A stretch of 64,000 bases of DNA, taken from positions 96,001 through 160,000 of the forward strand of contig CAXXFL010000001.1 in assembly GCA_963674965.2 (NCBI GenBank), given 5' to 3'. Below the pieces are notes generated by a model. It was not told where the DNA came from. It made no database searches and was given only the letters and a program-made list of their open reading frames with translations. The position numbers and the translations under genes are program-made. The DNA is from a bacterium. GTDB taxonomy: Bacteria > RBG-13-61-14 > DATKZS01. Shown piece by piece: positions 13,401 to 30,604 of the stretch; position 1 is the first letter of the stretch, and every line of letters starts with the position of its first letter.

Positions 13401-14207
13401 TTGTCACGCCTTGCCAAGCGTTTCGAGGAACTGAAGAAAGAGGGGAAAGCGGGGTTTATTCCGTTCATCACCGCGGGGGACCCGACCCTGGCGCGGACGG
13501 CCGAGCTTTTGGACGTTTTGGCCGAGTCGGGGGCGGACGTCATCGAGTTGGGCATGCCCTTCTCGGACCCCATGGCCGACGGTCCCACCATCCAGGCGGC
13601 CTCCGAGCGGGCGCTGAAAAACGACTTCGGCATCGAGGAAATTCTCGAGCTGGCCGGGGACTTCAGGAAGCGCCATGACGTTCCGCTCATTCTTTTCGGC
13701 TATTACAACCCGGTCTTCTCCTACGGCGAGGAGCGGCTGATGAGCGAGGCCCAGGACTCGGGGGTGGACGGCTTTCTCATCGTGGACCTTCCCCCCGAGG
13801 AGGGGGAGGACATGCTCCGCTACGCCGACGGGGCCGGGGTGGACGTCATCTATCTTATCGCTCCCACCACGCCCGACTCCCGGATCGAGAAGATAGCCAG
13901 GGTCGCCCGCGGCTTCGTCTACTACGTGTGCGTCACGGGAGTGACCGGCGCCCGCGCCACCGTGTCCACCACCATTGCCCGCGACGTGGAGAGAATCCGC
14001 CGTCATATCGACCTGCCCGTGGCCGTGGGCTTCGGCATCAGCACGCCCGAGCAGGCGGCCGAGGTGGCCCGCCGGGCCGACGCCGTGGTGGTGGGAAGCG
14101 CCATCGTTTCCATGATCGGAAAACTGGGAGACACGGACGAGATGGTCGGGAAGGTGGGCGAGTTCGCCGCCGCCCTCAGCGCGGGCGTCCGCTCGGCCAA
14201 GAAGTGA
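13401..14207 (+). CDS. trpA: Tryptophan synthase alpha subunit
   Basis: IELGMPFSDPMADGPTIQ, VDLPPEE, GVTGAR, VGFGIS. Confidence 0.97.
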   Translation: MSRLAKRFEELKKEGKAGFIPFITAGDPTLARTAELLDVLAESGADVIELGMPFSDPMADGPTIQAASERALKNDFGIEEILELAGDFRKRHDVPLILFGYYNPVFSYGEERLMSEAQDSGVDGFLIVDLPPEEGEDMLRYADGAGVDVIYLIAPTTPDSRIEKIARVARGFVYYVCVTGVTGARATVSTTIARDVERIRRHIDLPVAVGFGISTPEQAAEVARRADAVVVGSAIVSMIGKLGDTDEMVGKVGEFAAALSAGVRSAKK

Positions 14208-14237
14208 GTCCGGCCTTTTAAGCTCCGCCCATTCGCC

Positions 14238-15044
14238 ATGCCTGAAGTTGAAGTCAACGGAGTCCGCCTGCATTACATGGCCGCGGGAAAAGGAGAGGCG
14301 GTGGTCCTTATCCACGGCTTCACCTCCAGCCACGTCATGTGGTACAACCAGGTACCCGCCCTGGCCCGGGCCGGTTTCAGGAGCTACGCCTACGACGCGC
14401 GCGGCCACGGCGACTCGCAAAAGCCCGGAAAGGGATACGACGCCGACTCCCTCGCCCTCGAGCTCGGGGCCTTCATGGACGCCCTCAATGTCCCGAGGGC
14501 CCACGTGGCGGGCCTGTCCATGGGAGGCATGATCGCCCAGCGCTTCGCGCTCTCGAGTCCCGAGCGGGTCGCCACCCTCACCATCGCCGACAGCTTCACC
14601 GGCGGCCCGGTCAACGGGGTCATGCGCTCCTTCCAGGACCAGATGGACCTGCTCATGAAAAAGGGACTGCCCGGCCTGTGGGCAAGCATGCTTTCAAACC
14701 CCGCCTTTCCGGTGGGACCCGACTTCACCGGTCACCTCGAGCTGATGGACCTGTTCCAAAAGAACTTCATGAAGAACGACCCCGACTCCCTCGCCCTCTT
14801 CGTGCAGGAGTTCGCCGCCGCCCGGGACTGGACCGGAGACCTCGCCTCCATATCGAGGCCCACCCTCCTCATCGTGGGCGAGTACGACGCGCCCTGCCTG
14901 GACCCGATGAGGCGCATGAGCGAGAACATACCCGGCTCCGAGCTGGTGGTCATTCCGCGCTGCGGACACGTGTCGGCCCTCGAGAAGCCGGAGGAATTCA
15001 ACCGCGCCTTCCTGCCCTTTTTAAAGCAACACCCCATCGGGTAA
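14238..15044 (+). CDS. Alpha/beta hydrolase
   Basis: LIHGF, DARGHG, nucleophile elbow GLSMGG, GEYD and CGH. Confidence 0.9.
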   Translation: MPEVEVNGVRLHYMAAGKGEAVVLIHGFTSSHVMWYNQVPALARAGFRSYAYDARGHGDSQKPGKGYDADSLALELGAFMDALNVPRAHVAGLSMGGMIAQRFALSSPERVATLTIADSFTGGPVNGVMRSFQDQMDLLMKKGLPGLWASMLSNPAFPVGPDFTGHLELMDLFQKNFMKNDPDSLALFVQEFAAARDWTGDLASISRPTLLIVGEYDAPCLDPMRRMSENIPGSELVVIPRCGHVSALEKPEEFNRAFLPFLKQHPIG

Positions 15045-15052
15045 CCGCCCTC

Positions 15053-15547
15053 TTACTTGCTCCTGATCAATAAGCCCGCCACGTAAAACATGCGGTCCTG
15101 GGTGGGCGAGCCGTTCTTGCCGGCCACGCTGAAAGGTTTCCATCCCGTCCCGAACCCCGTTATCGAGCCCTCGCCCTTCCAGCCGTAGGAGTCTCCCGTG
15201 TCCGGGCAGGAAAGGTCGCAATATTGAGAGTCCACCGTCACCCGGAAATACTTGCCGCCCGCGGGCGAGTCCTCCGTCATGCCGTACACCCGGACCCCCA
15301 GCTCGGACACCCCGTCGGGTATCCAAACCACGCCGGTGAAAAGTTCCTCGGTGGATTGATTGGACACGTCGCGCTGGGCCTTGAAAACGTACTCCCACGC
15401 GCTCGAGTTATAGAACCTTCCGTGCGCGTTCAAAAGGGGCATGCCCTGGTGAAGCGCGTCCAGGTTGCCTTTGATCTTGCCCATAAGGGTCTGGTTGAGC
15501 GGACTGTTCGCGTCCACCTCGCCGGCCGCTATGTCGGTCCAAGCCAT
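15053..15547 (-). CDS. Putative tail tip or small fibre protein
   Basis: Last gene of the operon; N-terminus MAWTDIAAGEVDANSPLNQTLMGKIKGNLDAL resembles virion anchor segments; beta-rich C-terminus. Confidence 0.45.
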   Translation of the reverse strand: MAWTDIAAGEVDANSPLNQTLMGKIKGNLDALHQGMPLLNAHGRFYNSSAWEYVFKAQRDVSNQSTEELFTGVVWIPDGVSELGVRVYGMTEDSPAGGKYFRVTVDSQYCDLSCPDTGDSYGWKGEGSITGFGTGWKPFSVAGKNGSPTQDRMFYVAGLLIRSK

Positions 15548-15623
15548 CTCGATCTCCTTTTATTTAAGGCTGTCGCCGCGTCCGCCTCTCGCCTCGAGGG
15601 CCGGGGGCTGGGAGCGGCCAGGT

Positions 15624-16133
15624 TCAGTCGGCGGCCAGGAAATTTTTTTCCCGGAGCCAGGCGGCCCTTTTCAGAACGTCCCTCGAGTAGTCCTTGCCGG
15701 TGGTCGAGGAATCCACGTCGCGGCCCCGGATAAGGTGCCGCTCGACCCGGCCCATGCCGCAGTTGTATCCGGCCAGGGCCGCCCGAAGGGCCTTGTCCTT
15801 GTCCAGGTCGGGAAAGGCCTCGGCCAGGCGGTCAAGGTTCTCGCGCAAAAGGCCGCACCCGTAGGCCAGGTTGGCCGCCGGGTTGCGCCACAGATCGCCC
15901 AGCCCGACGAACCCCTTGTGCCAGCGGTCGTCGATCTGCATGAGTCCTCGCCCGTGTCCCTTGTCGCCCGTGTCCGGCGGGTTGCCCCATTTGCCTAAAA
16001 GGCGGCCCGCGCCCGACTCGCGGCTGATTATCGCGGCCACCACCAGGGGGTCCAGGCCGAAGCTTTCCGCCACCGCCGCTATCAGGGGCCCGATCATCTC
16101 GAGCCAGGGAAGGTCCAGTTCCATCGCCTTCAT
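15624..16133 (-). CDS. GH23 g-type-lysozyme/SLT-like endolysin
   Basis: AAIISRES (catalytic Glu), GDKGHGRGLMQIDDRWH, AGYNCG, DYSRDV; ATGA overlap with the upstream gene. Confidence 0.85.
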   Translation of the reverse strand: MKAMELDLPWLEMIGPLIAAVAESFGLDPLVVAAIISRESGAGRLLGKWGNPPDTGDKGHGRGLMQIDDRWHKGFVGLGDLWRNPAANLAYGCGLLRENLDRLAEAFPDLDKDKALRAALAGYNCGMGRVERHLIRGRDVDSSTTGKDYSRDVLKRAAWLREKNFLAAD

Positions 16134-16408
16134 TTGTTCTCCTCCATGGTTTTCCTCCTCTCGTTCTCGCGCGCCAGTCCCTCCCGAATCTCCTCGAGGG
16201 AGGTCCACGCCCTCTCCAGGCCCCGCTTGATCTCGATCACGTCGTCGTGAAGCTCGCGGTGCTGGAGCGCGCAGTACTCGCGCGCCACTTTGCCGTCCAC
16301 GCTCTCTTGCATGGACTCGATCCGCTGGTTGTTGCTCTTCCAAACCAGCCCCCATAAAAACAGGATCGCCGCCCCGTCGATCAGTATCGACGGCAATACT
16401 CCTCCCAT
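16130..16408 (-). CDS. Holin-like small membrane protein
   Basis: 92 aa with one N-terminal TM segment and a coiled coil; coupled to the lysozyme gene. Confidence 0.5.
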   Translation of the reverse strand: MGGVLPSILIDGAAILFLWGLVWKSNNQRIESMQESVDGKVAREYCALQHRELHDDVIEIKRGLERAWTSLEEIREGLARENERRKTMEENK

Positions 16409-16420
16409 TTCCTCACCTCC

Positions 16421-18352
16421 TTAGTAAACGTGGTAGCCGTCCTCGCCGTCCGGCCCCACCTTGTTGTCCCAGTCTCCTATCCAGCCGTGCCTCTCCCTCT
16501 CCTCGACGCTCGCCGACGAGTAGTCGTGGCCGACCTCGGCCGGCGAAATGAGCGGATAGCGCCGGGAAAGGTTGGTGTCGATCGCCGCGTACTCGAAGCG
16601 GTTGTCGCTTCGGGCCGACTTCTTGAGGACCTCGAAGAGCCTCCCCGCCAGCGGAGCGCCGCTCGCGTCCACCACGTCGCGGCTGGTGACGCGGACGAAG
16701 TCGCCCACCTTCAGGCCCGAGTCCTTGAGCTCGAGGGAGAAGCCCAGCGTCGGCGCCCCGCGCCCGTAGCGGATCAAATACCTCGAGGCCAAAATCAGCG
16801 CCTCGTTCTCGCGATATATCCAGTCGGCCTTGATCTCCTTGTTCTTGGAAAGACGGAAAAAGTCGTTGCTCTCGCTCTCGGCGTCTATATAAACCAAAAG
16901 CCCCGCGTAGGAGTCGGCCTCGTCTCCGGACGCCCCGGCCATGGGATCGTAATAAACCGTGGCCCGCGTGGCCTGGAGCTTAAGGCCCGGCTCCCAGCTC
17001 GTCGAGCCGTCGATGAAGCCCGTCTCGTCGTCAAGCTCGGCGGCGTTCCCCGCCATGACGGGCGGGGCCACGCACTTGGCCCATATTTTCGAGTCCTCCC
17101 CCTGCCAGACGTGAAGCATGGTCTGCTCGCGAAGTCCGTTGATGAGCTTCTTGATCGAGGTGGGCTTGTCCACCCTCCTCCGAAAAAGCGAGCCCGAAAG
17201 CCAGCGCCCCAGCTCGTCGCTGAAGACCACCACCGGCGCCGCCTCGTCCTGGCCGTGGCTCGCGGCCTCGGAGCCCAGCGCGCCCCTCTCCGTCGCGTGA
17301 ACGCCCGAGGAGGTCTTGCCCCGGTAGGAAACAAGCTCGTCTCCTATCCGCACGGTCCCGGTCTCGGGCAGGTCCCGGGCGTTATTCAAGCCGATCTCGA
17401 GCTCGGAGGCCCCGATGGACGAGGACAAGGTAACGCCCCGGTCCACCGCCGCCAGGTCGAGAGGGTCGATGCCGCCGCTCTCGCAGAGAAGAGACATGAA
17501 TATCTCGTCCGCCGGAAGTCCCTCCCCCGAGTCCTCCTCCGCGAAGACCGCGGCCTGGGCGACTTTGGTCCCGGCCAAGTGGGACGCCGCCGCCGAGCCG
17601 TAAGCCCCGCTCGAGCACCCCTCCAGCGTCTGGGCGGTCACGCCGGTGAAGGTCACGTACTCGTCCTCGATCTTGACCGCGCCGGGGGCCTCGAACTCGG
17701 CGCCGTCCGCCACGTGCATGACCGAGCCGCCGCTATAGTCCATGAGCAGGACGTTTTTCGAGGACTGGCGGGGAGGTATCTTTTTGTCCAGGAGCTTGAG
17801 CTGGTCCTTGACGATCAGCCGCGCCCTACCCTCCTCCCACTCGAGGCCGTCGATTACTCCCTTGAAGACCAGCCGATACTCCGAGACCTCGAGGCCGCCG
17901 AAGCCCCGGTAGACGCGGGCCGTCCGGCCCTCGAGGTTCGGGTTGCGGGCGATGAGGTTGCGGAAATAGGAGCCTCCCGTCTCGAGGCGGGAGACGGCCT
18001 TGTCCGGATTGGCCAGGGCGAGGGGCTCGTCGTCCAGGAACTCGATGGTGACGCGGGCCCGGCGGGTGACGCTCTCTCCCGGCTTGATCTCGGTGGGTAC
18101 CTCGCCCACGCTCGCGAGGTAGGGCAGGGCGCCCGGCAGCCTGGGACCGTCGGCCGAGCAAAAGCAATACTCCTTCATGGTCCTCGAGAAATCGGCCGGG
18201 GCCAGGCAGGTGGAATAGGTGTAGTAACAGCCCTCGCCGCCCGAGGCCCCGCACGGCGCCTGGCCGTACTCGTTCGCGCAGTAGTCCAGGTCAAGCGCGA
18301 CCAGCCACGTGACCTCCCGGCAAATCCCGGACCTTTTATCATCGTAGTTCAT
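16421..18352 (-). CDS. Tail hub/tip (baseplate hub-like) protein
   Basis: 643 aa after the distal-tail gene; N-terminal Cys cluster; two GxxGSxAASH repeat domains. Confidence 0.65.
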   Translation of the reverse strand: MNYDDKRSGICREVTWLVALDLDYCANEYGQAPCGASGGEGCYYTYSTCLAPADFSRTMKEYCFCSADGPRLPGALPYLASVGEVPTEIKPGESVTRRARVTIEFLDDEPLALANPDKAVSRLETGGSYFRNLIARNPNLEGRTARVYRGFGGLEVSEYRLVFKGVIDGLEWEEGRARLIVKDQLKLLDKKIPPRQSSKNVLLMDYSGGSVMHVADGAEFEAPGAVKIEDEYVTFTGVTAQTLEGCSSGAYGSAAASHLAGTKVAQAAVFAEEDSGEGLPADEIFMSLLCESGGIDPLDLAAVDRGVTLSSSIGASELEIGLNNARDLPETGTVRIGDELVSYRGKTSSGVHATERGALGSEAASHGQDEAAPVVVFSDELGRWLSGSLFRRRVDKPTSIKKLINGLREQTMLHVWQGEDSKIWAKCVAPPVMAGNAAELDDETGFIDGSTSWEPGLKLQATRATVYYDPMAGASGDEADSYAGLLVYIDAESESNDFFRLSKNKEIKADWIYRENEALILASRYLIRYGRGAPTLGFSLELKDSGLKVGDFVRVTSRDVVDASGAPLAGRLFEVLKKSARSDNRFEYAAIDTNLSRRYPLISPAEVGHDYSSASVEERERHGWIGDWDNKVGPDGEDGYHVY

Positions 18353-18381
18353 CCGCGCCTCCAGTTAATCGGTCGTCCCCA

Positions 18382-19155
18382 TCACTCGCCCGCGCTTATC
18401 ATCTCGATCGCGAGCGAGCGGTAGGGCCCCTGATAGGGAGAAGAAAAGCCCGGCTCGGCCGAGCGGACCAGCGCCACGCGTCTCGGGTCGCGCGCCGGGT
18501 CCCAGGCGAAGAAGAAAGGCCTCAGGCCGTGCAGTCGCCAGAAGCGGGACCACTCCTCCTCGATAAAGCCCGGGTCCAGCCGATCGAAGCTGGCCCGAAT
18601 CCGGCGCCTCGAGTATTTTTGCGCCACGCCGAGAAGACGGCCCGTCCTTCCCGTCTCGGCGGCCATGGCCGTCTCGAGACCGTCGGGATCGAAGCCCGCC
18701 TCGGGAAAGGCCGGTATTTCCATGGCCTGGCCCACGAAGAGAACGCCCAACCGCGGGGCGGCCGAGTATCCGTCGGGTATGACCAGCTTGAAATAGCGGC
18801 GGCTTTGGACGGGAAAGCGGCAAAAGAACGCGGAGTCGTCCTCCGGCGCGGCCGGTTCCATGCAGTCATGGTAGATCGAGTCGTCGTCCGAGTACTTGAG
18901 CGCCAGGCCCGAGACGCCGCTCGAGGCCAGGTCATGTCCGGCTATCGCCAGGCAATCCACCGGGGCCTGGCAAGACTCGCCCGCGTCGATCTTGATCTCG
19001 AGGTCTCCCGAGGACGCCTCCGCTCGCCAGTGGGTGTAGTCCCTCCAGTCCAGGGCGTTCTGAAAGGGAAAACCCGCCGCGTCGGCCGGCCGCGTTACCG
19101 TAACGCCGTCCATGCTCAAAACGTTCTCCCAGGCGATCACCGGATAATCGCTCAT
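18382..19155 (-). CDS. Putative distal tail protein
   Basis: Sits after the tape measure; IAGHDL, RYFKLVI, LGVLFVG and PFFFAWDP resemble distal-tail proteins. Confidence 0.5.
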   Translation of the reverse strand: MSDYPVIAWENVLSMDGVTVTRPADAAGFPFQNALDWRDYTHWRAEASSGDLEIKIDAGESCQAPVDCLAIAGHDLASSGVSGLALKYSDDDSIYHDCMEPAAPEDDSAFFCRFPVQSRRYFKLVIPDGYSAAPRLGVLFVGQAMEIPAFPEAGFDPDGLETAMAAETGRTGRLLGVAQKYSRRRIRASFDRLDPGFIEEEWSRFWRLHGLRPFFFAWDPARDPRRVALVRSAEPGFSSPYQGPYRSLAIEMISAGE

Positions 19156-19766
19156 GACGCCACCTCCAGGATCACGTCGTCGCTCAGGTTCTCGTTGATG
19201 GCGTCGATCAGCTCGCGAGCGAAGTCGTAGGTGTCGATCAGGCCCACGTTGCGGCCCACGTCCACCACCACCCGCGTTTGTCTCGTCTCCGGGTCGCTAT
19301 TGGAGGGGGCGGTCTCGGCCGCTGACCCCTGGCCGCCGGTCCGGTATCCCGCTACGCTTCCCCCACCCGACTTGGCGGCCTTGGCGTACTGCTGGGCGGC
19401 CAGGGCGTGCTTGAGCGAGCTGGCCAGGGCCGTCGGGTCCTTGGTCCCCAAAAACCTGGCGAACTCCTTGGTCGCCTCGGCGATCTCGAAGGGGATCATA
19501 ACCTTGGCCTGGTCCTTGACCGACCCGCCCAGCAGCGTGGCCATCGAGCCGGCCAGCTTGCCGTAGCTCGAGAGCTGCTCGGACCAGGACGACTGGCGGA
19601 GGTCCGAGATGAGAGACTCCCACCTCGAGACGGTCCCCGCCTTGTCCGAATAGGAGGTCTCGAGCTTTTCACGCTCGGACCCGAGGTATTGCTCGAGCAG
19701 GGCGGCCCTTTCGTCCATCATTTCCCTAAGCGCCTCCATGTCGGAGGCGAGCAACTGGTCATCCAT
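19152..19766 (-). CDS. Short tape-measure-like protein (~204 aa)
   Basis: Follows the G/GT chaperones; helical and Ala/Ser-rich, Gly-rich linker, C-terminal RELIDAINE helix; GAGGAG RBS. Confidence 0.6.
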   Translation of the reverse strand: MDDQLLASDMEALREMMDERAALLEQYLGSEREKLETSYSDKAGTVSRWESLISDLRQSSWSEQLSSYGKLAGSMATLLGGSVKDQAKVMIPFEIAEATKEFARFLGTKDPTALASSLKHALAAQQYAKAAKSGGGSVAGYRTGGQGSAAETAPSNSDPETRQTRVVVDVGRNVGLIDTYDFARELIDAINENLSDDVILEVAS

Positions 19767-20013
19767 TTTCAATCTCCTCGATCAGGTGAAGGACCCAAAG
19801 GTCCCAGAACTCAAGTCCGGTCTCGGCCGCGGGATACCCGGCCTTTATCGGCCCGCGCCAAAGGAGGACCCGGATAAGCTCCGGCGACGCCTTCTCGATC
19901 GTCGGCTCGGAGCAGTTCCGGCAGGTCCAGTCCGAGTAGGGACCGAGGCGGTCCTCGCAGTCGGCGCAGCTCGAGGCCCGGCCCGAAAGAAAGGCCCGGG
20001 CATCCCGCGCTAT
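19759..20013 (-). CDS. Tail assembly chaperone frameshift extension (gpT-like, -1 frame)
   Basis: Open -1 frame after A-AAA-AAA: IARDARAFLSG...CADC...CRNC...EEIENG*. Confidence 0.7.
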   Translation of the reverse strand: MARDARAFLSGRASSCADCEDRLGPYSDWTCRNCSEPTIEKASPELIRVLLWRGPIKAGYPAAETGLEFWDLWVLHLIEEIENG

Positions 20014-20378
20014 TTTTTTAGGCCGCCCTCCCTCACGTGGGACGGCACGGCCGAAAGGTACTGGCCCAGGGCGATGGGTATGAGCGGACAGCGCTCGGCC
20101 AGGGCGTCCTTCCACCCGCCGCGCTCCTCCCCGGCGCCCGGCGAGGGCGCGCCGTCGATCTCGAGGTCGCCCTCCCCCACGCCGGTCACGCAGGCCAGGC
20201 CCAGCTCGAGGTTGGCGTGAAGGGCCCGGAGCGCGTCCTCATCCTCGCCGCCGCGGGGCATCTTCTTCACCATGGTCTCGATCACCTCGTCCATGGCCGG
20301 CCTTCTGTACCTCACCCGTATCTCGTCGTCTCCGACCCTTAGTCTCAGTTCTCCCTCTTTGCCGATCCTTAACGTCAT
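20010..20378 (-). CDS. Tail assembly chaperone (gpG-like)
   Basis: 122 aa starting MTLRIGKEG, between tube and tape measure; ends CTA AAA AAA TAG. Confidence 0.75.
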   Translation of the reverse strand: MTLRIGKEGELRLRVGDDEIRVRYRRPAMDEVIETMVKKMPRGGEDEDALRALHANLELGLACVTGVGEGDLEIDGAPSPGAGEERGGWKDALAERCPLIPIALGQYLSAVPSHVREGGLKK

Positions 20379-20407
20379 GGCTTTATCCTTTCCGGCCCGG
20401 GCCGATT

Positions 20408-21682
20408 TTAAAGGTATCCGTCCACGCGGTTGTGGCAGCGTATAATCGCGCCGCCGCAAACGCCGTCGTCCATCACCACCAGGTCGCCCTCCTCGGAGAG
20501 CCGGCCGCCGCCGCTTACGATGGCCGACTTGACCAGCCCGCACCTGGGGAAAATCAGCTCGGCCCCGAAGCGCTCGCCTCCCTCGTCGATTTGGGCGCCC
20601 TCGAGCAAAAGGGCCAGCGCCAGGGTCTCCGTCTCCGGGTTGTCCGCCCGCCATCTGCCGACCGTGTTCCTCAGTCCCTCCGACAGGCTGATGGTGATCT
20701 CTCTCGCGCCGCGAAGCGCCAGGGCCGCCGGTCCCGAGTCGCCGGGAAACCTTTTCAGCTCGAGGTTGTTCTTGCCGGAAACGGAAATGGACTCGATCCC
20801 GGAGGATATGGTCTGGCCTCCCAGCAGGGTGGTCCCGTCGAAATAGGCGTCGGCTATAACTCTTGAGTCGATAAGCTTGAGGGGCGACTCGGCGGCCTCG
20901 GCGGGAAAGGCGGCCCAGTCCGGCGCGGGGACCAGGTAGTCCAGGTGGAACTGGACGTCCGAGGAGGACGAGCCGAGGGGCTGGACAAAGGTAATAACCG
21001 CGGGCTCGCCGTCGGACACGGAGGCGACCTCGAGGGTCGTCCAGGCCTGGCTTCCGGCGTCTTTGGCCCGGACCCGGTAGAGGTTGCCAAGACGCTCCAG
21101 AGCGGTGGCCCCCGCCACCTTGTTCGAGGCCAGCGTGATGGAGGCCGAGTCGGCCGGGGCCTCGATTACCTCGCGCTCGTAGTCGGTCTCGCGCGCGCCG
21201 GTCCCGATGACCTCGGCCGAGGCCGTGACCCATCCCTCCCCCAGCCCGATGGTGAAGGACTCGATAAAGTTACCCGAAAGGCGCTCGGTGAAAATCCCCG
21301 CGCCCCTTCGCTGCACGGCGGTGAAGCTGGGAAGCTCGAGGCCGGGAGCGGGACCGATTACGTGCTCGAAGGCCGTCGCGCCGACGGCCGCCGTCTGGAC
21401 CTCGCCGAGGAAATAGGCGAGGACGAAGGCGATGAAATCGGGCCTGGCCCGGGACTGGGCCAGGGAGCCCAAGGCGCCTCGAGCGGCCGAGAAAAGCCGG
21501 GTGGGAAACTCGGAGCCCGTAATCGAGCCGGCGTCGGTTTCTACCTCGGCCGAGCTTTGTATCCATGACCCCGGATCGAGCGGGAAAGAGGCCCCCGCCC
21601 GATTGGACGGCTGGTTCACCGCCTCTTCCGCGCCCCTGTAAAGGGCGATCCTTCCCAGGGCCTCGAGATTGTTCTTGATCAT
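20408..21682 (-). CDS. Tail tube (major tail) protein with an insertion domain
   Basis: FVLAYFLG...FEHVI...LPSFTAVQRRG...SGNFIESFTI is typical of tube proteins; GGAGG RBS. Confidence 0.7.
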   Translation of the reverse strand: MIKNNLEALGRIALYRGAEEAVNQPSNRAGASFPLDPGSWIQSSAEVETDAGSITGSEFPTRLFSAARGALGSLAQSRARPDFIAFVLAYFLGEVQTAAVGATAFEHVIGPAPGLELPSFTAVQRRGAGIFTERLSGNFIESFTIGLGEGWVTASAEVIGTGARETDYEREVIEAPADSASITLASNKVAGATALERLGNLYRVRAKDAGSQAWTTLEVASVSDGEPAVITFVQPLGSSSSDVQFHLDYLVPAPDWAAFPAEAAESPLKLIDSRVIADAYFDGTTLLGGQTISSGIESISVSGKNNLELKRFPGDSGPAALALRGAREITISLSEGLRNTVGRWRADNPETETLALALLLEGAQIDEGGERFGAELIFPRCGLVKSAIVSGGGRLSEEGDLVVMDDGVCGGAIIRCHNRVDGYL

Positions 21683-21702
21683 TTCGATTCCTCCTTGATC
21701 CT

Positions 21703-22227
21703 TTAAAGGGCGAGTCCGGGACAAAAAGGCACGGCGACCTCGATCCCGGTCAGTGACGAGGCCATGGCGCCGTCGGTCCCCGTTTCGGTTTCATTGATCC
21801 GCGTCTGGATGATCGAGCAGGTCAGGGTCCCTTCCCCTCCCTCGATGGATTCGGCCAGCGCCTGCATGGGAGCGTCGGCGCGGTTCTGGGAACGCAGGAC
21901 CCGCTCGATCCTGGCGGCGATCCTTTTAATTTCGTCCTCGATCTTTTCCCTGTCCCTGCCGCGATGGGCCGCTCGGACCTCGAGCGCGAATATCTTGTTC
22001 ATGCGGGCGGCCGGGCACGCGGGCGTCTCGGTCTTGCCCGAGGCCCGGACCAGGACCGCGGGGAACTGGGAGGCCGCGAGGCTGTCGGGCGGTGAGCCGC
22101 CGCGCCCGAAGGTCCTCACCGCGGGACCGGCCGCCCGGTTCAGTCCGCCTTCCCCGGAGTCGGCCAGGAGCGTTTCGATCACTTTTTCCTCGACCTCGAG
22201 GTAGTCTCCATTCGCCAGGTTCGTCAT
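21703..22227 (-). CDS. Putative tail terminator protein
   Basis: 174 aa between adaptor and tube; QFPAVLV and RIERVLR. Confidence 0.55.
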   Translation of the reverse strand: MTNLANGDYLEVEEKVIETLLADSGEGGLNRAAGPAVRTFGRGGSPPDSLAASQFPAVLVRASGKTETPACPAARMNKIFALEVRAAHRGRDREKIEDEIKRIAARIERVLRSQNRADAPMQALAESIEGGEGTLTCSIIQTRINETETGTDGAMASSLTGIEVAVPFCPGLAL

Positions 22228-22242
22228 GGCTTTTCCCCTTCC

Positions 22243-23046
22243 TCATCCCGGCCAGGGCCACTCGACGCCGCCGTCGGAACGGGACAGCTCTCCCCGATAC
22301 GCTGACACGGGACCTCGGTAGCCGGGCAGCCGCAGGACGGGGGTCTTGCCCTCCGAGGGCGTGAGGCGCATGAGCAGGGAAAGGGCGCGCTGATAAAGCT
22401 CCTCGTCGGCCCGGGCGTTGGCCCTTCCCATGAAGGACGCGCATTGCCAGGCGGACAGCTTGCGGCACGCGGTCTCGACCACCGCGGGCGTGGGCGTCTC
22501 GTCGTGGATCGAGGGAAAGGGCACGTCATAGCAAACGCGGAGGAAGGCGTCGATTTTGCGCGAGGCCTCGGCGATGGCCATGCTCACCATTTCCTCGGTG
22601 AACTCCTCGGGCCAGGCGCCGGGCAGCTCGGCCGCGACCCTTGCCGGCGTCGAGTAAAGAGGTCCCTCGACGCTTCCGGCCGCGACCTCGAAGGCCGCCA
22701 GCACGGTCGGATACGGGAAAACCTCGACCCCCGAGACGCGGGCGTAAACGTGGGCCTCGGCCACGCCGGCGGCGAAGCTCGCGAGCTCGATTCCCCCCAC
22801 GTACAAGAAGGGGCCGCCCTCCTGGTTCTGGGTCTCGTGATAGTCGTTGCCTTGCAGGATGGGGGGATCGCCGCCCGCGGTCGCCGCGGCCCTGACCGTT
22901 CCCCCGGCGTCGCGGAACTCGACCTTAAGGTCCGGGTCGTCCCAGTCCGGCAGGGTCCAGTGACCCAGGCCGTCGGGCACGCGGAAGTCGAAGCCGGCCT
23001 TTTCCGATCTCGAAAAAACTGGAAGCGAGTTCATTTTCTCCTCCAT
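22243..23046 (-). CDS. Head-tail adaptor (Mu gp36/DUF1320-like C-terminus) with an N-terminal beta domain
   Basis: YSTPARV...AIAEASRKIDAFLRVCYDVPF...PAVVETACRKLSAW. Confidence 0.7.
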   Translation of the reverse strand: MEEKMNSLPVFSRSEKAGFDFRVPDGLGHWTLPDWDDPDLKVEFRDAGGTVRAAATAGGDPPILQGNDYHETQNQEGGPFLYVGGIELASFAAGVAEAHVYARVSGVEVFPYPTVLAAFEVAAGSVEGPLYSTPARVAAELPGAWPEEFTEEMVSMAIAEASRKIDAFLRVCYDVPFPSIHDETPTPAVVETACRKLSAWQCASFMGRANARADEELYQRALSLLMRLTPSEGKTPVLRLPGYRGPVSAYRGELSRSDGGVEWPWPG

Positions 23047-24422
23047 ATTTCAGGTTGTCTTCTTATCGCCGCGCCGGGAACGCGAGGCTCGGTGACCTGC
23101 TCGAAGCCGGCGTCGATGGACATGGCCCTGGTCTTTCCCGAGGCGCCGCGGCCGGACCAGGGCCGTCCCAGGCCGAGGCAGGGGCTGAAGGTCCGGGGCG
23201 CGAGCCCGGCGTCGAGGAGGGGGTCGGTCTCGAGGGACGCCTGGTCCGTTCCCGTCCTGGCCCTCCACTCTTCCAGGCCCAGCGACTCTCCTCCCACCAC
23301 CGCCATAGCTCCGGACGAGCCGGGATGGAAACAGTTGCCGTCCGAGCGAAGGACCCGGACCTCGGCCGCGGCGTCGGCCCTAATGCACTCGAACTGGGAG
23401 CTTCCCCTTTCGAGGACGTTATTCATCATTCCCGCCAGGATGAGGGCCTTGTCACCCACGTGGCGGACGCCGAAGGAGTTGGCCTTGGCCGAGTTGTTGG
23501 CCAGGACGAAATAGACCTCGGCGTCGTTATAAATCCATTGGAAGCCGCCCATGGAGCGGCATCCGCTCATCTCGACCATGGTCTTGTAATCGTTTGGCGC
23601 CCCGGCGTAAGTCCCGGCGGCCTGGAAGGTCATGTCCTTAAAGTCGCAGCGCCTGATCGCGAGAAGGTCGGCGTTGACCAGGCAGACCCCGATATCGAGC
23701 GGCTTCTCGGGTGACCCCTCGAAGAGGCACTCCTCGATCCGCCAGTCCCGGACGACGGCGCTCCCGGGCCGGGCCGGCAGGATTCCCACCAGGGCGCCGG
23801 TGAACTTGATCCTCCTTACCCTCACGCTTCCCACGTCGCCGCTCTCGAGGCAGGCGCCGGCGTCCTCGCCGTCGAAGGTCACGGCGTTTCCCTCCTCGGC
23901 GTCTATCACCAGGGGATGGGCGGCGGTCGGGCTCAGGGTCGAGAGCGAAAGGGTCGCTCCCGAAACTCCCTGCCCGTAAACGCCGGCCCAGCCGCGAGCG
24001 TAATGGGTCTCGGCGAACTCGGACGGCCCGACCCAGGACAGGAGCGCGTCCAGGGCGGTTTGGGGCGAGCCGTAAGTCCGGCCCGGCCCGTAGTCCCACA
24101 CGGTCGAATGGGAGCGGTCCAGGCCCTCGGGGCCGGGGACGAGGGTCAGGGACGAGCCGAGGTTGGCCACGCGAAACGCGGCGCAGCGGGCGGCCGACTC
24201 GGCGGCGATGAACTCGCCGTCCTTGAATATAAGCGCCCTTTGTTTGAAGGAGGGCGGGTCTTTTTTCCTGAGGGCGGGCGGCAGGGCGCCGACCTTGTGG
24301 GCGCGCCACAGCCTTCCGCTTTTCTCGTAGTCCGTGGGCTCGACTCCATCGGGCATGGCGGCCGAGACCCATCCCTTGGGCAGGACGCCGTAGTCCTTGT
24401 CGACGATCAGCAAAGTGGGCAT
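23031..24422 (-). CDS. Right-handed beta-helix (pectin-lyase-like) virion protein
   Basis: Repeating short beta motifs (IEECLF, IRRCDF, LANNS, MNNVL, GNCF) and a C-terminal DPLL...SPCLGLG...IDAG cap. Confidence 0.55.
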   Translation of the reverse strand: MPTLLIVDKDYGVLPKGWVSAAMPDGVEPTDYEKSGRLWRAHKVGALPPALRKKDPPSFKQRALIFKDGEFIAAESAARCAAFRVANLGSSLTLVPGPEGLDRSHSTVWDYGPGRTYGSPQTALDALLSWVGPSEFAETHYARGWAGVYGQGVSGATLSLSTLSPTAAHPLVIDAEEGNAVTFDGEDAGACLESGDVGSVRVRRIKFTGALVGILPARPGSAVVRDWRIEECLFEGSPEKPLDIGVCLVNADLLAIRRCDFKDMTFQAAGTYAGAPNDYKTMVEMSGCRSMGGFQWIYNDAEVYFVLANNSAKANSFGVRHVGDKALILAGMMNNVLERGSSQFECIRADAAAEVRVLRSDGNCFHPGSSGAMAVVGGESLGLEEWRARTGTDQASLETDPLLDAGLAPRTFSPCLGLGRPWSGRGASGKTRAMSIDAGFEQVTEPRVPGAAIRRQPEIWRRK

Positions 24423-24507
24423 GGGGTAACTCCCTTTCCTATGGCTTGGTCATTATCGTCCGCGGCGGGGCTCGGGGCTCGGCGGCCGCGGGCCTTGCTT
24501 CCCCGGA

Positions 24508-25527
24508 TCAGGACGCGGCGCAGCGCCTGAGCTGCTCGGGTTCTCCCACGATGGCGCCGTACCTTCCCCACCCGGCGGTGGTCTCGGCGTAGGCGAGCAC
24601 GTCGCGCTCGGACAGCACGGTCAGGTCCATCCTGTTGCCGCTTTTTATCTTCCTTCCCGGCAGGGCCACGAAGTATTTGCCCGTCTCGGGCGTGGACAGG
24701 TCCTGGCTTTTAAGGCGCGTGGTGACGGCCAGCTTGACGTTGAAGTTGACCTCCCCCGCGTCGCCCGTGACCTGGCCGGAGACGGTGAGACGCAGAGCGT
24801 TCCTCATCCGGGACATGAGCTGGACCGGGCAGAGCACCACGAAGGACGAGTTGGCGTTGACCTCCATGCCCAGTCCCTCCATGTCATCGAGTATGGCGGC
24901 GCAGGCGGCGTTGATGGTCTCGGCGTCGCGGACGGCCTTGTCCTCGCCGGCCTCTCCCGCCCAGGCCACGTCCGAGTCGGGCCTCGCGGCGCTGATGAGG
25001 TCGTAATGGGCCTGGGCCTTGTGGGCGTACCATTTCGAGCGGAACTCTTTGGAGGCGTCCTCGATTTTCCAGTGCTCCTCGTCGTCGAACCACAGCCGAG
25101 ACCAGCCCAGGGCCCCGCCGTAAAGGTCGAAGTCCACGGTCACCTTCTCGCCGCTCACCTTGAAGACGTGGGCCTTCTCCCCCGGCTTGACGGCCCGAAA
25201 GCTGAGGCCGGAGGAAACGTCGACCAGGTCGAAGCCGTTCTTGCGCGTGCCCGTGAAGTCGATCACGTCGAACACCTCCATCCATCCCGCGTCGGGGTCC
25301 TCGACCTGGTGGTAGCGCGAGATGGCCTCGAGGGCGTCCTCGGGGAAGTCCCCCGGCGAGGTGAACTCCGAGACCCGGGCCAGGGTCTCGGCCGCCGCCG
25401 CCCGCGGACGGTCCATGAAGTACTGCACCGCCTCGATGAAGCGCTCTTGTCCGTCCGCGTCGGAAAGGTCAACCTTGTTCCAGTCGGATATCATCATTCC
25501 TTTCATTTTCTCTCCTCCCTCGATCAT
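24508..25527 (-). CDS. Major capsid protein (HK97-fold, Mu gpT-like); start may be 25506
   Basis: About 335 aa after the protease and cement genes; VKPGEKA...YGGALGWSRLWFDD; C-terminal AGWGRYGAIVG. Confidence 0.75.
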   Translation of the reverse strand: MIEGGEKMKGMMISDWNKVDLSDADGQERFIEAVQYFMDRPRAAAAETLARVSEFTSPGDFPEDALEAISRYHQVEDPDAGWMEVFDVIDFTGTRKNGFDLVDVSSGLSFRAVKPGEKAHVFKVSGEKVTVDFDLYGGALGWSRLWFDDEEHWKIEDASKEFRSKWYAHKAQAHYDLISAARPDSDVAWAGEAGEDKAVRDAETINAACAAILDDMEGLGMEVNANSSFVVLCPVQLMSRMRNALRLTVSGQVTGDAGEVNFNVKLAVTTRLKSQDLSTPETGKYFVALPGRKIKSGNRMDLTVLSERDVLAYAETTAGWGRYGAIVGEPEQLRRCAAS

Positions 25528-25538
25528 GCCCGAGGCGA

Positions 25539-25901
25539 TCAGTCCAGGACCATAAGGTCGATCAGCGCCGTCTCGTCCGAGGCGGCCGCCGCCTCGAGCG
25601 CCCTTCCGCAGGCCACGTTGTCCGTGGACTGGGGAGTCACAACGCCCGCCGACTCGTCGAAGTAAACCCGGTCGCCGGGCGATAAGGTCTCGCCCGAGGC
25701 CTTGGGCGCGAGTATCTTCTCGGCCTCATAGACCAGGACGAAGTCCGAGTTCTCGGGCGCGTCCTCGACCACCACGCCCACCGTGTCGTTCACCACGATC
25801 ATGTCGCCGGCCGACCGGCCCTCGCCCGCGCCCGCGGTCGCCCGCAGGGTCTTGGCCCGGCTTATGCTCGTCCTTAATTTCAATCCCGTCTCAGTCACCA
25901 T
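25539..25901 (-). CDS. Capsid cement/decoration protein (DUF2190-like)
   Basis: GDMIVVNDTVGVVVED...GDRVYFDESAGVVT...CGRALEAA. Confidence 0.75.
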   Translation of the reverse strand: MVTETGLKLRTSISRAKTLRATAGAGEGRSAGDMIVVNDTVGVVVEDAPENSDFVLVYEAEKILAPKASGETLSPGDRVYFDESAGVVTPQSTDNVACGRALEAAAASDETALIDLMVLD

Positions 25902-25928
25902 TTCCTTCTCCTTTCATTTCACGCTCGG

Positions 25929-27044
25929 TTAGAATCCTCGGGGACGGGGTATTAGGGGATTGTCCCGTCCCGCTCCCCACCGACGCGGCCTCTCGGGAGG
26001 GGCCGCCGACCGACCGACCGGCCAGGCCGACTTGAGCCTGTCGATCTTCCTCATCTCCGACTCGATCCTCTCTTTAAGCTCTAGCTCGAAGCCCGCTCCC
26101 TTCAGCGGCGGCCTGGTCACCAGGTCCTCGATGATGATCTCCCTTTCGATCCGGCCCAGGCTCGTGCCCTCGAGCATCCTGGCCGCGTCCACTCTGGCCT
26201 TTTCCGAAAGACGAGCCATGCGGGCCGCCTTTTTCAGCCTGGACAGCTCGCGGCCGGCGCGGCGGAGCTTTCCGTTCTTGGCCTCGAGTCCTTGCTCGAG
26301 GCCCTCCACCTTGGCGGCCTCCTTTCGGATCACGTCCGCCACGACCGGGTCGGACATGAGGCGCTCGCGGCCGAAAAGCTCCGAGGGAAGGGTCTCGGCC
26401 GGCGCGTCCGTTTCGCCGTCGCCGCCTTGCCTTTCGCCCGGCTCCTCGAACTCCTCGACCGCCGCCAGCACCGAGGCGTAGGCGAAGCCGGGACGGTCAT
26501 GGCCCGACCGGCCCAGGGCCACGCCCGTCACCTTCCTGACCGCGTCCACTATCCAGGCGCCGGAACTCCCGTCCTCACCGTGGCACTCGATCTCGGCCTC
26601 GATCGAGCACACGTCCAGGCGGCCCGACCGTATGTCCCGTTTGACCTCCGGGTCAGTCACCGCGGCCAGGCCCACGGCGCTGAGAAGTCCGTTCACCCTT
26701 CTCTCGCCGGCGGACACCACCTCGCCCACCTTGCGCCTGACCGCTCCCGCCGGGGCGTGGCAAAGGTAGAGGGGAACGCCGCTCCCCAGCCGGGCGGCCA
26801 GCTCGCGGACGCGCTCGCGGCTCCAGAACTTCCTTCTCGGAGAACCGCCCTTTCCGTCGTCGCTCATCCTTCCCCGCGAGTAGCCCTCGTGCCCCGCCAC
26901 CAGCTCGACGAACAGGGGACTCGAGTCCATTTCCTCGATCCGCCGGCGGAATCCCTCTCCCACCCGGGCCCTGGCCTCGAGGGCGTCGGTCTCCGTCGGG
27001 CCCGCGGCCACGAGGGTCAGGCCGGTTACCATTGTCTTTTTCAT
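25929..27044 (-). CDS. Prohead protease/scaffold
   Basis: PLYLCH...VGEVV...CSIEA His/Ser pattern followed by a coiled-coil C-terminus; overlaps the portal stop. Confidence 0.65.
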   Translation of the reverse strand: MKKTMVTGLTLVAAGPTETDALEARARVGEGFRRRIEEMDSSPLFVELVAGHEGYSRGRMSDDGKGGSPRRKFWSRERVRELAARLGSGVPLYLCHAPAGAVRRKVGEVVSAGERRVNGLLSAVGLAAVTDPEVKRDIRSGRLDVCSIEAEIECHGEDGSSGAWIVDAVRKVTGVALGRSGHDRPGFAYASVLAAVEEFEEPGERQGGDGETDAPAETLPSELFGRERLMSDPVVADVIRKEAAKVEGLEQGLEAKNGKLRRAGRELSRLKKAARMARLSEKARVDAARMLEGTSLGRIEREIIIEDLVTRPPLKGAGFELELKERIESEMRKIDRLKSAWPVGRSAAPPERPRRWGAGRDNPLIPRPRGF

Positions 27045-28360
27045 ATCTCTCCTCCTTCCTCTTCCTTACTGGGCTGGAAGACTTCCATCCCGCTTTCGCC
27101 CCTCGAGGCGGCCTCCTGTTTTTCCTTGTCGGGATCGACGTCGGGCAAAAGCCCCAGCAGGGTATCGAGCCCGATGGCGCCGGCCTGGAAGAGGGGCAGG
27201 TATAGCTCGGTGAGCCGCTCGATCTGGGCCCTGGTGACGAACTTCATGGAGGGTCTGACCTTGCCCTTCTTGAGGGGCGCGGCGCTCGCGAGGGCGTTTT
27301 CATTCCTCAGCTCGATGGCCTTGTCGAACAGCTCGGAGAACCCTCCCAGCCAGGAGCGCTGCTCGGAGATGGACACCAGGGCCACGGGCTCCATGGTGTT
27401 GTCGGCGGTGGCGCGGTTGCTCATGAACTCGGGAAAGCCCAGAAACTGCACGGGCACTCCCGCGCCTCCGGCGAGAATTTTGACCTTTGTCTCGATCTCG
27501 CGCTGGATGGAGTCGTATCCGGAGTCGCTCATGCCCACGAGGGAGAAGTCGGCCGGCCCGACGAAGACCTTTCCGATCTTCCAGTCCACGCCGGGAGCGA
27601 GAAGGCGCTCGTAAAGGTCCATGGCCTCCCGGACGTCCCGGGTCTTGAAGTAGGGGGTGGGCGAGGCGAAAAAGCGGTTGATCTTGCGCCAGTCGCGCAG
27701 GGCGTGGTCCACGTCCTCGGCCTCCTGGAGGAGCCCCGAAAGGGTCGGCGCCCCCTCGCGGCCGTGCACGCGGGCGTTGAACTTGATGAAGACGGCGCGC
27801 TCGGGAGGCACGCTCACCTCGCCTCCGTTTTCGTCCTCATAGGTGATGGCCGTTATTTCCGCGTAGTCGTCGCGGGCGTACTCGACCTCGTAGCGCGAGT
27901 CGTTCCAGGAGATGAAACGCGTCTTGATTGAGTCGGCCGCGGGTTCGTAATCGAGGGTGAGGAGCACCTGTCCCTCGAGTTCCTTCTCGACGGCGAGCTG
28001 CTGCCCGAACTGCCCGTCGAGGCGGTTCTCCCGGATAAGGCGGCGGAGGAACTCGAGCTCGGGTCCGGGTCCCTCGCCCGGAAGCGGCGCCGCCGACAAC
28101 CCGTTGGCCATGGCGAAGGCGGCCCTCGTGTCCACCAGACGCTGCACGAGCTGGTTGCCCGAGCGGGCGTAGCCCTTGTACTTTTGCACCAGTTCCGAGA
28201 CCAGTCTCTCCCGGTCCCGGTAGGGGTTGGCCGCCGGGATTGACTGGCCCGCCGCTCTTCCCGCCTTGAAGGACAAAACCTCTGACACGTACTCCTCGGT
28301 ACGGGCCAGCTTGATCTCGAGTTCCTTTGCCCTCGTCTTCCATTTCGATCTTCCAAACAT
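27041..28360 (-). CDS. Phage portal protein
   Basis: 439 aa, first gene of the operon; ELEGQVLL, REGAPTL and GVPVQFLG...NRATA. Confidence 0.75.
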   Translation of the reverse strand: MFGRSKWKTRAKELEIKLARTEEYVSEVLSFKAGRAAGQSIPAANPYRDRERLVSELVQKYKGYARSGNQLVQRLVDTRAAFAMANGLSAAPLPGEGPGPELEFLRRLIRENRLDGQFGQQLAVEKELEGQVLLTLDYEPAADSIKTRFISWNDSRYEVEYARDDYAEITAITYEDENGGEVSVPPERAVFIKFNARVHGREGAPTLSGLLQEAEDVDHALRDWRKINRFFASPTPYFKTRDVREAMDLYERLLAPGVDWKIGKVFVGPADFSLVGMSDSGYDSIQREIETKVKILAGGAGVPVQFLGFPEFMSNRATADNTMEPVALVSISEQRSWLGGFSELFDKAIELRNENALASAAPLKKGKVRPSMKFVTRAQIERLTELYLPLFQAGAIGLDTLLGLLPDVDPDKEKQEAASRGESGMEVFQPSKEEEGGEI

Positions 28361-28835
28361 TTGATCCTCCCCTGAACTTGTTTTTTGCCTCTTACTAATG
28401 GCGAAACGGGCGCGTTTTTGTGGACCCCGGGTTGACGAAAAAGGGAAATGGGGGCGCGAGAAGGATATGCCGACGTGTAATTACTCGGCGTTACGGGAGG
28501 TTATGAAACGCGAAAAATTTTTCGTCCATCCTCCCTTGACGAGTTCAATTCAACCGTGACTCGACGAAAATAGGACTCGTTTATGGCCCCGCCTCGCGAC
28601 CTTAAGAGATCGTTACGCCGGGAGAATGGGCGCCCGGACGCCCGGCGGCGGCCGCCGCGAAATACGGGCTTGCTTGAGTCGGTTTCTTGAGATAATTTTT
28701 AGTCGTGTCCTTTTACCGCCCGGTCACGCCGGGCGCGGGCCCCTAGTTCACATCGCGGGTTCAAGGGGCCGCCTATTTCTTCCCGGCTCGGAAAGGCCTT
28801 CTCGAGGCGGGAGTTAAAAAATCGAGGAGGAGTGA

Positions 28836-30584: not shown

Positions 30585-30604
30585 AGATAAATCAAAGGAG
30601 GACG

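Follow-up and report, generated by a model that had tools for sequence, protein, structure and literature searches.

A phage-derived head-tail gene cluster and its unlinked terminase block in the candidate phylum RBG-13-61-14: a putative gene-transfer-agent-like element

The DNA analysed here (the window) comprises 64,000 nucleotides from the genome of an uncultured, sediment-type bacterium of GTDB lineage Bacteria; RBG-13-61-14; DATKZS01 (NCBI GenBank assembly GCA_963674965.2, contig CAXXFL010000001.1, positions 96,001 to 160,000 of the forward strand). It holds a cluster of 15 intact minus-strand genes and one -1 frameshift product in an unbroken, closely spaced or overlapping run (15053-28360), in which the original prediction, made from the sequence of the window, had counted about 16 intact open reading frames (ORFs) and inferred a domesticated phage particle resembling a gene transfer agent (GTA). 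That reading was supported by the present analysis. With a probability of roughly 0.6, the cluster is the head-tail-lysis half of a domesticated, phage-derived, GTA-like viriform, the packaging genes of which lie on another contig; its packaging and delivery activity is predicted from sequence. That the particle is domesticated and maintained by the host is very probable; the odds that it serves to transfer genes, as a GTA does, are put at even or a shade better.

The genome holding the window (G000) was compared with the genomes of 12 other species of the phylum (labelled G001 to G012 and referred to as relatives); the 13 species genomes represent 5 families and 10 genera, and 28 genomes from other phyla served as an outgroup sample. 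The family of the window is denoted f1 and other families of the phylum f2, f3 and f5. Genes are numbered g1-g14 from the portal gene, g2 encoding the scaffold-like protein, g5 a protein of 463 amino acids (aa), g11 the protein with a CBM32-like module and g12 the 643-aa tail tip. Cluster proteins were searched against Pfam (E <= 0.01) and PHROG, and the 371-aa scaffold-like protein also against NCBIfam and PDB. Ratios of nonsynonymous to synonymous substitution (dN/dS) were calculated pairwise by the Nei-Gojobori method.

Packaging genes at a second locus

No terminase gene was found in the cluster of the window, and none beside the portal gene. The large terminase (TerL) of G000 is encoded on another contig, in a block that also includes genes for a ParB-N-domain protein and a methyltransferase-like protein (Table 1), and is 57-59% identical to TerL of relatives from the same family; the methyltransferase-like protein, which has 215 aa and is encoded, like the ParB-N-domain protein, upstream of TerL, shows weak similarity to S-adenosylmethionine (SAM)-dependent methyltransferases. 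The block is surrounded by ordinary metabolic genes. In four relatives, a TerL homologue of 464-478 aa is encoded by the ORF immediately upstream of the portal gene. A radical SAM gene resembling that for spore photoproduct lyase (SPL) is transcribed divergently from the packaging block, and the block of SPL-like, methyltransferase-like, ParB-like and TerL genes is kept in all 11 genomes of the order, whether or not it is linked to the structural genes. The SPL-like protein may be a DNA repair or modification partner of the element.

The short intergenic region beside the SPL-like gene contains a conserved TTGACA-N17-ATAATx-like motif pointing toward that gene. A regulatory motif shared by both loci of G000 was sought and rejected: the only conserved one reads as the -35/-10 promoter of the divergent SPL-like gene, no motif common to the regions upstream of the packaging block and of the portal gene could be established, and a scan for sigma-70 sites gave 2 against 1.1 expected, with no consensus match in the 475 nt upstream of the portal gene. 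A weak Terminase_6N match elsewhere in the genome (G000:C6:965334-967514, a 521-aa frame) adjoins a tyrosine recombinase and was assigned to an unrelated prophage or remnant. The TerL of G007 (L074, G007:C80:40695-53880; also L019) was recovered in two pieces, residues 31-141 and 243-465, at a locus where 207 bases read N.

The position of the TerL block relative to the portal gene varies across the phylum. The block lies directly upstream in G001, G002, G004, G005 and G011, on the opposite strand at a distance of about 9-12 kb in G003 and G007, and on another contig, with unrelated genes upstream of the portal gene, in G000, G006, G008 and G009; in eight long contigs from metagenomes, of up to 480 kb, TerL does not occur within 7 kb upstream of the portal gene. 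Read from these arrangements, the linkage of terminase and portal was lost several times, and the SPL-like gene stayed linked to the terminase block.

In G000 the window is found 96-160 kb into a 1.6-Mb contig and the TerL block at 212 kb in a contig of 0.77 Mb, each flanked on either side by host genes. Both loci are thus deep inside long contigs, and their separation is therefore not an effect of assembly ends. A 26-kb contig from the sequencing runs (three runs, one study) spans positions 12001-31000 of the window without differences; no RNA run with the locus was found. The run contigs contained no real excision joint; the only candidates had sides of 20-21 letters and were taken as chance matches from other organisms. 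Because the element occupies two distant loci in G000, no single particle would carry the whole of it, and it could not propagate as a virus; such a split would be intolerable for any virus whose excision and packaging require it to be in one piece. The purifying selection that persists on both parts after their separation (see below) suggests that selection acts at host level. The original prediction was silent on the missing terminase, on the terminase block at a second locus and on co-diversification with the host, which are the decisive features.

Inheritance, selection and genomic setting

The capsid gene occurs exactly once per genome in 13/13 genomes of the phylum (53-77% identity) and is absent from 28/28 genomes sampled outside it. 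Identity to the capsid of the window is 74-77% within the family, 62-71% within the order and 53-55% within the class. TerL is likewise present once per genome in 13/13. Absence from close relatives, which the original prediction had named as evidence against domestication, was thus not observed in any of the 12 other genomes. Gene order from portal to tail tip is colinear in 12/12 relatives, to the extent of their contigs. Portal orthologues (57-71% identity) were found in 11 of the 12, the locus of the remaining one stopping short of the gene, and the 174-aa neck candidate has intact orthologues in all 12. No internal stops were found in the extracted orthologues, save for one SLT extraction in one relative that runs through a stop; the pseudogenised orthologues also named by the original prediction were therefore not encountered. 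The capsid gene was found on 46 further metagenome contigs, on 39 of them at 50-74% identity. Among the 15 longest of these loci, which include contigs of 290 and 480 kb, 11 are colinear well into the tail genes and 3 carry head genes only.

Trees of RpoB, of the concatenated portal, cement, capsid, g7 and tail tube proteins, and of TerL agree on every well-supported clade. Family f5, f3 with both of its genus pairs, f1, and the pair G002 and G004 were recovered in all three, and disagreement was confined to nodes that are weak in all three. Pairwise identity of the particle proteins follows that of RpoB (Spearman 0.87, 78 pairs, the pairs not being independent). The capsid tree groups the 11 genomes of the order with 99% support and places f5 as their sister. 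In the closest pair, G002-G004, dN/dS is 0.10-0.29 for 13/13 genes (dS 0.56-1.3), and in the second same-genus pair, G009-G010, it is 0.12-0.26. As judged from these genomes, each of the two loci has been kept across the phylum as a single intact copy, under purifying selection and co-diversifying with the host.

These results bear on the possibility that the cluster is a slowly decaying cryptic prophage remnant without host function. Such a remnant would account for the terminase missing from the locus and for the longer branch, higher dN/dS and loss of one lysis-associated gene in G000 that are described below. Under neutral decay, however, 14-15 ORFs would not have stayed intact across 13 genomes at saturated synonymous divergence; moreover, dN/dS is well below 1 for every gene, the frameshift signal of the chaperone gene is kept in 8/8 genomes, and the unlinked TerL is still conserved, with a tree that still agrees with that of the host. 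A decaying remnant is accordingly very improbable.

The original prediction had described the DNA as host-like in guanine plus cytosine (GC) content and equally dense in CTCGAG sites, and this did not hold. The cluster has 65.9% GC versus 58.3% for the genome, a value within the highest 0.08% of 13.3-kb windows, and CTCGAG occurs at 3.46 per kb in the cluster versus 1.66 per kb in the genome; the terminase block has 63.2% GC. Across genomes, the GC of the cluster tracks that of the host, from 0.44 to 0.645, and is at or above that of the flanks in 11/12 relatives. Codon frequencies of the cluster and of long host ORFs are correlated (r = 0.96). In the clusters of the Rhodobacter capsulatus GTA (RcGTA) type, GC is raised above the host mean, according to excerpts of PMC7360931. 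The amino-acid cost of capsid and portal was compared with that of their IMG/VR homologues (23.2-23.3 versus 24.0 high-energy phosphates (~P) per residue) and set aside, since the difference is confounded by GC (0.59-0.60 versus 0.42-0.45) and nearly nil at matched GC.

The cluster is flanked by genes for an alpha/beta hydrolase and an AMP-binding acyl-CoA synthetase, as had been predicted (Table 1). In G001-G005 the orthologues of the acyl-CoA synthetase gene of the window and of the radical SAM gene on the TerL side are located on other contigs than the cluster. The predicted lack of an integrase, a tRNA and an attachment (att) repeat was borne out for the window: none of the 12 tyrosine-recombinase matches of the genome falls within it (serine recombinases were not searched), it contains no tRNA, and no direct repeat brackets the cluster. 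For the replication and repressor genes, also predicted to be missing, the claim stood in part: none was seen in a check of the immediate flanks, which did not extend to every ORF of the 64-kb window. Among 65 tyrosine-recombinase matches in the 13 genomes, none is on a contig carrying the cluster or TerL, except on the megabase-size contigs of G000, where no match comes closer than 338 kb. Of the 12 head-tail loci of the relatives, only that of G006 has a tRNA, a tRNA-Leu(CAA) gene (L020:14478-14565) that precedes the portal start by about 345 nt.

Several observations weigh against a domesticated GTA-like element. All of the phylum genomes compared are metagenome bins. With a GC 7.6 points higher than the genome mean, the cluster could be taken as foreign in composition; the flanking host genes differ between relatives, even within one genus; and since a tRNA-Leu gene adjoins the portal gene in one of 12 relatives, there is room for mobility in the past. 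Where the element is contiguous (G001, G002, G004, G005 and G011) it measures about 17 kb, and a head sized like those of the phage relatives of the capsid, which are contigs or genomes of 30-42 kb, could hold all of it; the argument of a particle too small to carry itself therefore draws on the dispersal only. For the G000 copy, dN/dS is 0.22-0.57; in the third pair examined, dS is saturated. The particle branch of G000 is 0.55 versus 0.13 for RpoB, and a 241-aa spanin-like gene of four relatives, which in L014, L015 and L016 follows the SLT gene, is missing from the whole of G000 by tblastn; with its long branch, higher dN/dS and missing gene, the G000 copy may be under relaxed constraint. 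In the capsid tree, two metagenome proteins of unknown origin nest beside f5.

Part of this would suit still-functional temperate or chronic phages that have co-speciated with their hosts, the split being produced by fragmented or mis-joined assemblies: the relatives are all bins, the TerL contig ends near TerL in three of them, the flanks vary, G006 has its tRNA beside the portal gene, and the cluster of G000 departs from the mean GC of its genome. Active phages of this kind are nonetheless highly unlikely, given the depth of both G000 loci within their contigs, the 26-kb run contig without an excision joint, the host genes directly upstream of the portal gene in G006, G008 and G009 and on contigs of up to 480 kb, the lack of a tyrosine integrase on the cluster contigs of the relatives and of any replication genes among those seen, and the occurrence once per genome in 13/13 with congruent trees.

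Relation to phages and to known particle systems

The family of the capsid is rare: a search of 1.84 billion proteins at E <= 1e-3 gave 345 representatives. Capsids of 35-43% identity were found on 16 IMG/VR contigs, and one of 41% in an Omnitrophota bin; with these relatives the cluster has only the head module in common, and no match to g5-g14 was found in them. Of the 50,697 phages deposited, Microcystis phage MACPNOA1 (KY697807.1) alone matched the capsid, at 28%, the common part being the capsid and cement proteins only, and the tail tube had no tblastn match in the same records. The near-identity to an active phage that the original prediction had held out as contrary evidence was therefore not seen, either in IMG/VR, where matches are limited to head genes, or among cultured phages. 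The IMG/VR phages and MACPNOA1 resemble the cluster in the families of capsid, cement, portal and scaffold proteins and in the order of the head module, and some of the IMG/VR phages have a large ORF directly after the capsid gene, as the cluster does. They differ in sequence (28-43% identity) and in the tail, g5-g14 being without a tblastn match. They also carry replication genes (in one IMG/VR relative the neighbours of the terminase gene include DnaC-like, DnaD-like and Cas4-like genes) or, in MACPNOA1, recombinases, an XRE regulator and a 1437-aa tape measure, none of which was seen in the cluster.

Six features define a GTA or viriform in passages of Kogay et al. (2022; PMC9662315). A derivation of the proteins from caudoviricetes is indicated by the PHROG and Pfam matches and by the fold of the tail tube, the element being known here from genes alone. 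Full endogenisation, often over multiple loci, was seen in G000, G003, G006, G007, G008 and G009 and on long metagenome contigs. Vertical inheritance with congruent phylogenies is evident from the single copy in 13/13 genomes, the agreement of the trees and the GC that tracks the host. The other three are the packaging of mostly random host DNA and its delivery to other cells, both predicted for the present particle, and a head capacity too small for the whole element, for which the split loci speak and the contiguous copies (see above) do not.

The Pfam scan returned only Portal_Mu, Phage_cement_2, Phage_capsid_4, Phage_Mu_Gp36 and SLT, and none of the families that RcGTA proteins presumably carry, RcGTA sequences not having been compared directly. 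The lack of these families, together with the different, T5/P74-26-type tandem tail tube, argues for the independent origin that the original prediction had proposed. RcGTA-type agents (Rhodogtaviriformidae; Rhodobacter capsulatus, Caulobacter) resemble the element in having a head-tail cluster that measures about 13-15 kb and lacks genes for integrase and replication, additional element genes at other loci, host-congruent trees, vertical inheritance and purifying selection (passages of PMC9662315), a raised GC (excerpts of PMC7360931), a short tape measure and a siphovirus-type tail. They differ from it in that the cluster has a Mu-like portal and adaptor, a cement protein and a tandem tube, with no detectable sequence relationship, and in that its host is an uncultured candidate phylum in which the element is known from its genes. 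In the element of this phylum the unlinked part is the terminase; this is not so in RcGTA, the terminase of which heads the main cluster.

BaGTA (Bartonella), VSH-1/BhGTA (Brachyspira), VTA (Methanococcus voltae) and Dd1 (Desulfovibrio desulfuricans) are independent exaptations of tailed phages; the genes for Dd1 are not known to have been identified. The likeness of the present element to these four, drawn by description only, lies in the turning of tailed phages into particles that package host DNA. No description of a GTA for the RBG-13-61-14 lineage was found in the titles and opening lines of abstracts in the literature. The cluster does not have the appearance of a functional temperate prophage, since it lacks a tyrosine integrase and att repeats, belongs to an element split over two contigs and has metabolic genes at its flanks. 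Nor does it have that of a tailocin, since capsid, portal, cement and scaffold-like proteins and TerL are all present and conserved. The PBSX-like defective prophages of Bacillus, compared by description only, are likewise conserved, non-propagating and chromosomally fixed particles with lysis genes of their own; they are myovirus-like and contiguous, whereas the element described here is non-contractile and split over two loci. PBSX packages host DNA and acts as a bacteriocin-like killer particle.

Gene content and possible function

The genes of the cluster (Table 1) are predicted to encode a tailed capsid with a Mu-like portal and adaptor, a capsid of an HK97-class family and a non-contractile tail. 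The order portal-protease-cement-capsid-neck-tail-lysis given by the original prediction was borne out but for the protease, for which no family was matched.

Table 1. Features of the head-tail cluster and its flanks (positions in the window) and of the packaging block of G000 (positions on contig C2)
Feature	Position	Strand	Basis and remarks
Alpha/beta hydrolase	14238-15044		PF00561 5.6e-31
164-aa protein, last cluster gene	15053..15547	-	Without family match; role unassigned
SLT-domain lytic transglycosylase	15624..16133	-	PF01464 E 2.5e-7; ORF open to 16355, likely start 16133
Holin-like candidate, 92 aa, single-pass membrane, coiled coil	16130..16408	-	Translation; small ORF homologues in relatives
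Tail tip/fibre-adhesin protein, 643 aa	16421..18352	-	phrog_11439 'tail fiber protein' E 3.4e-49
Distal tail protein candidate, 257 aa, CBM32/discoidin-like N-terminal half	18382..19155	-	phrog_11633 E 4e-21
Short tape-measure-like protein, 206 aa	19152..19772	-	Weak matches to C-termini of tape-measure PHROGs, E 3e-4, 5e-4; follows chaperone
Tail assembly chaperone GT form, -1 frame extension	19759..20019	-	Slippery heptamer and open -1 frame
Tail assembly chaperone, short form G, 122 aa	20010..20378	-	Between tube and tape measure; ATG at 20378
Major tail tube, tandem-domain type	20408..21682	-	424 aa from second ATG; ORF reaches 21724 (438 aa)
Neck/head-tail joining candidate, 174 aa	21703..22227	-	Position only; without family match
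Head-tail adaptor, Mu gp36-like C-terminal domain, 267 aa	22243..23046	-	PF07030 E 2.5e-6; phrog_195 E 1e-4
463-aa protein, variable slot after capsid gene	23031..24422	-	Candidate beta-helix protein
Major capsid protein, 339 aa	24508..25527	-	phrog_24071 E 4e-20; weak Phage_capsid_4 match
Head cement/decoration protein, 120 aa	25539..25901	-	PF09956 Phage_cement_2 E 4.6e-16; phrog_122 E 7.6e-18
Scaffold-like protein, 371 aa	25929..27044	-	phrog_24820 E 1e-4, a phage family without a name
Portal protein, 439 aa	27041..28360	-	phrog_27684 E 5.8e-21; weak Portal_Mu match E 0.005
Intergenic region upstream of portal, 475 nt	28361..28835	.	GGGAGGA precedes ATG; terminase gene absent
AMP-binding acyl-CoA synthetase	28836-30584		PF00501 7.5e-72
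Large terminase TerL	G000:C2:212159-213559		phrog_38 E 1.5e-95; Terminase_6C
Packaging block: TerL, ParB-N-domain protein, methyltransferase-like protein	G000:C2:212159-215326		
Spore-photoproduct-lyase-like radical SAM gene	G000:C2:215425-216351 (= L055:11420-12667)	+	PF20903 2.8e-24; TIGR04070 7e-28, far below cut-off

The 371-aa protein has a conserved N-terminal domain with invariant His, Ser, Cys and Asp residues, an acidic linker, a coiled coil and a conserved C-terminal NPLIP motif. The protease label was rejected, as searches of Pfam (11 members scanned), NCBIfam and PDB returned no protease family and only coiled-coil matches. The coiled-coil half is scaffold-like, of a kind typical of scaffolds, and the whole may be a protease-scaffold fusion, a candidate whose protease part is unsupported by any family match. 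Searches of PDB with profiles of the capsid, tail tube, tail tip, g5 and scaffold-like proteins gave nothing beyond coiled coils. For the 463-aa protein no match was found in Pfam, PHROG or PDB sequences; an atlas feature search led to beta-helix/NosD clusters (score 0.95), and the protein is probably a right-handed beta-helix and, as a lead only, a candidate head fibre or receptor- or glycan-binding protein. Its orthologues occur only in the 4 genomes of the family of the window. The slot between capsid and adaptor genes is variable, other families holding 1.4-2.2 kb of unrelated sequence there (L018-L025), and in distant phage relatives from IMG/VR (L044, L052 and L053) it is filled by an ORF of 490-666 aa, one of which has a sialyltransferase-like PHROG match.

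The 438-aa tail tube protein came out of the family searches as a 'minor tail' protein. An AlphaFold2 model of the tail tube (predicted local distance difference test, pLDDT, 80; predicted template-modelling score, pTM, 0.77) was compared with known structures by Foldseek. The best match was the P74-26 tail tube (8ed0, E 9e-9), followed by DT57C (8hrg) and T5 pb6 (9iny/5ngj), with E values from 9e-9 to 1e-5. The tube thus has the tandem-domain fold of P74-26 and T5/DT57C, from which a non-contractile tail is deduced. The short form of the tail assembly chaperone ends in a slippery A AAA AAT immediately 5' of its stop codon, and the heptamer, with a -1 frame open up to the start of the next gene, was found in 8/8 genomes examined; on this signal, the apparent 237-nt gap before the tape-measure gene is predicted to be the -1 frame extension of the chaperone. 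The tape-measure-like protein is 192-211 aa long in the 9 relatives from which it was extracted.

The g11 profile matched a CBM32 module in PDB (4a42, E 2.3e-4). The 643-aa tail tip shares 24-29% identity with tail fibre and adhesion proteins of 31-40 kb marine phages and of cyanophages. Its N-terminus has a cysteine cluster within the first 50 residues, C42 and C49 being invariant in 8/8 sequences. Metal or Fe-S sites occur in some phage tail-tip proteins, and by analogy the motif could be such a site. The AlphaFold2 model of g12 was discarded (pLDDT 54) and not sent to the fold search. In the lysis region, relatives have small ORFs homologous to the 92-aa holin-like gene directly 5' of the peptidoglycan hydrolase gene, and in families f2 and f3 an amidase-type hydrolase takes the place of the SLT gene. 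The last gene of the cluster, encoding the 164-aa protein, has full-length orthologues (28-38% identity) in 4 relatives and shorter N-terminal matches in 3 more. The order of this gene and the SLT gene is swapped in G000 relative to three relatives of the same family (L014, L015 and L016).

As a GTA-like element, the two loci would be co-expressed in a subpopulation of cells upon some host signal. Packaging would be of the headful type, the terminase loading chromosomal DNA of the host into heads, and the heads would be joined to tails of about 30 nm, a value derived from the length of the tape measure. The holin-like protein and the transglycosylase would lyse the producer, and the released particles would deliver DNA to kin cells. 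The main rival to this function is a domesticated particle of other use, namely a PBSX-like killer particle or a device for lysis and DNA release that serves the biofilm matrix or nutrient supply; the phage and remnant alternatives fit poorly. The signatures of maintenance by the host fit a killer or lysis particle equally well, and genomics cannot separate it from gene transfer. A tail tip with a carbohydrate-binding module, the probable beta-helix protein of f1 and the retained lysis cassette are in keeping with it. Such a particle would not obviously need the full packaging set (TerL, portal and ParB-like partner) that is under selection across the phylum, yet PBSX also packages DNA. This other use is regarded as a minority possibility, with something like one chance in five.

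The GTA-like element may have been acquired early. The last common ancestor of the phylum RBG-13-61-14 may already have had a GTA of its own, domesticated independently and carried by the whole phylum ever since; in it, a portal and adaptor resembling those of Mu would be combined with a capsid of a rare family, a tube of T5 type and a packaging module tied to an SPL-like gene. This is a tentative proposition that we hold to be slightly less probable than its opposite. The linkage of the SPL-like gene and the terminase hints at a built-in tie of DNA exchange by particles to the repair or modification of DNA.

The GTAs known to have evolved independently amount to no more than a handful, and nearly all evolutionary work deals with the alphaproteobacterial one. 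If the reading as a domesticated GTA-like element is true, this would be a second case with the same genomic signatures (a single copy throughout the phylum, trees congruent with the host, purifying selection, raised GC and dispersal over loci), and GTA-type domestication would be repeatable and not an alphaproteobacterial oddity, having taken place in a deeply separate, uncultured lineage and with unrelated phage parts. The profiles of capsid, portal and TerL would provide a sequence-defined target for the sequencing of particle DNA in sediments, and the scattered arrangement of the loci would be a natural experiment on which gene linkages can be given up when a virus has become the property of its host.

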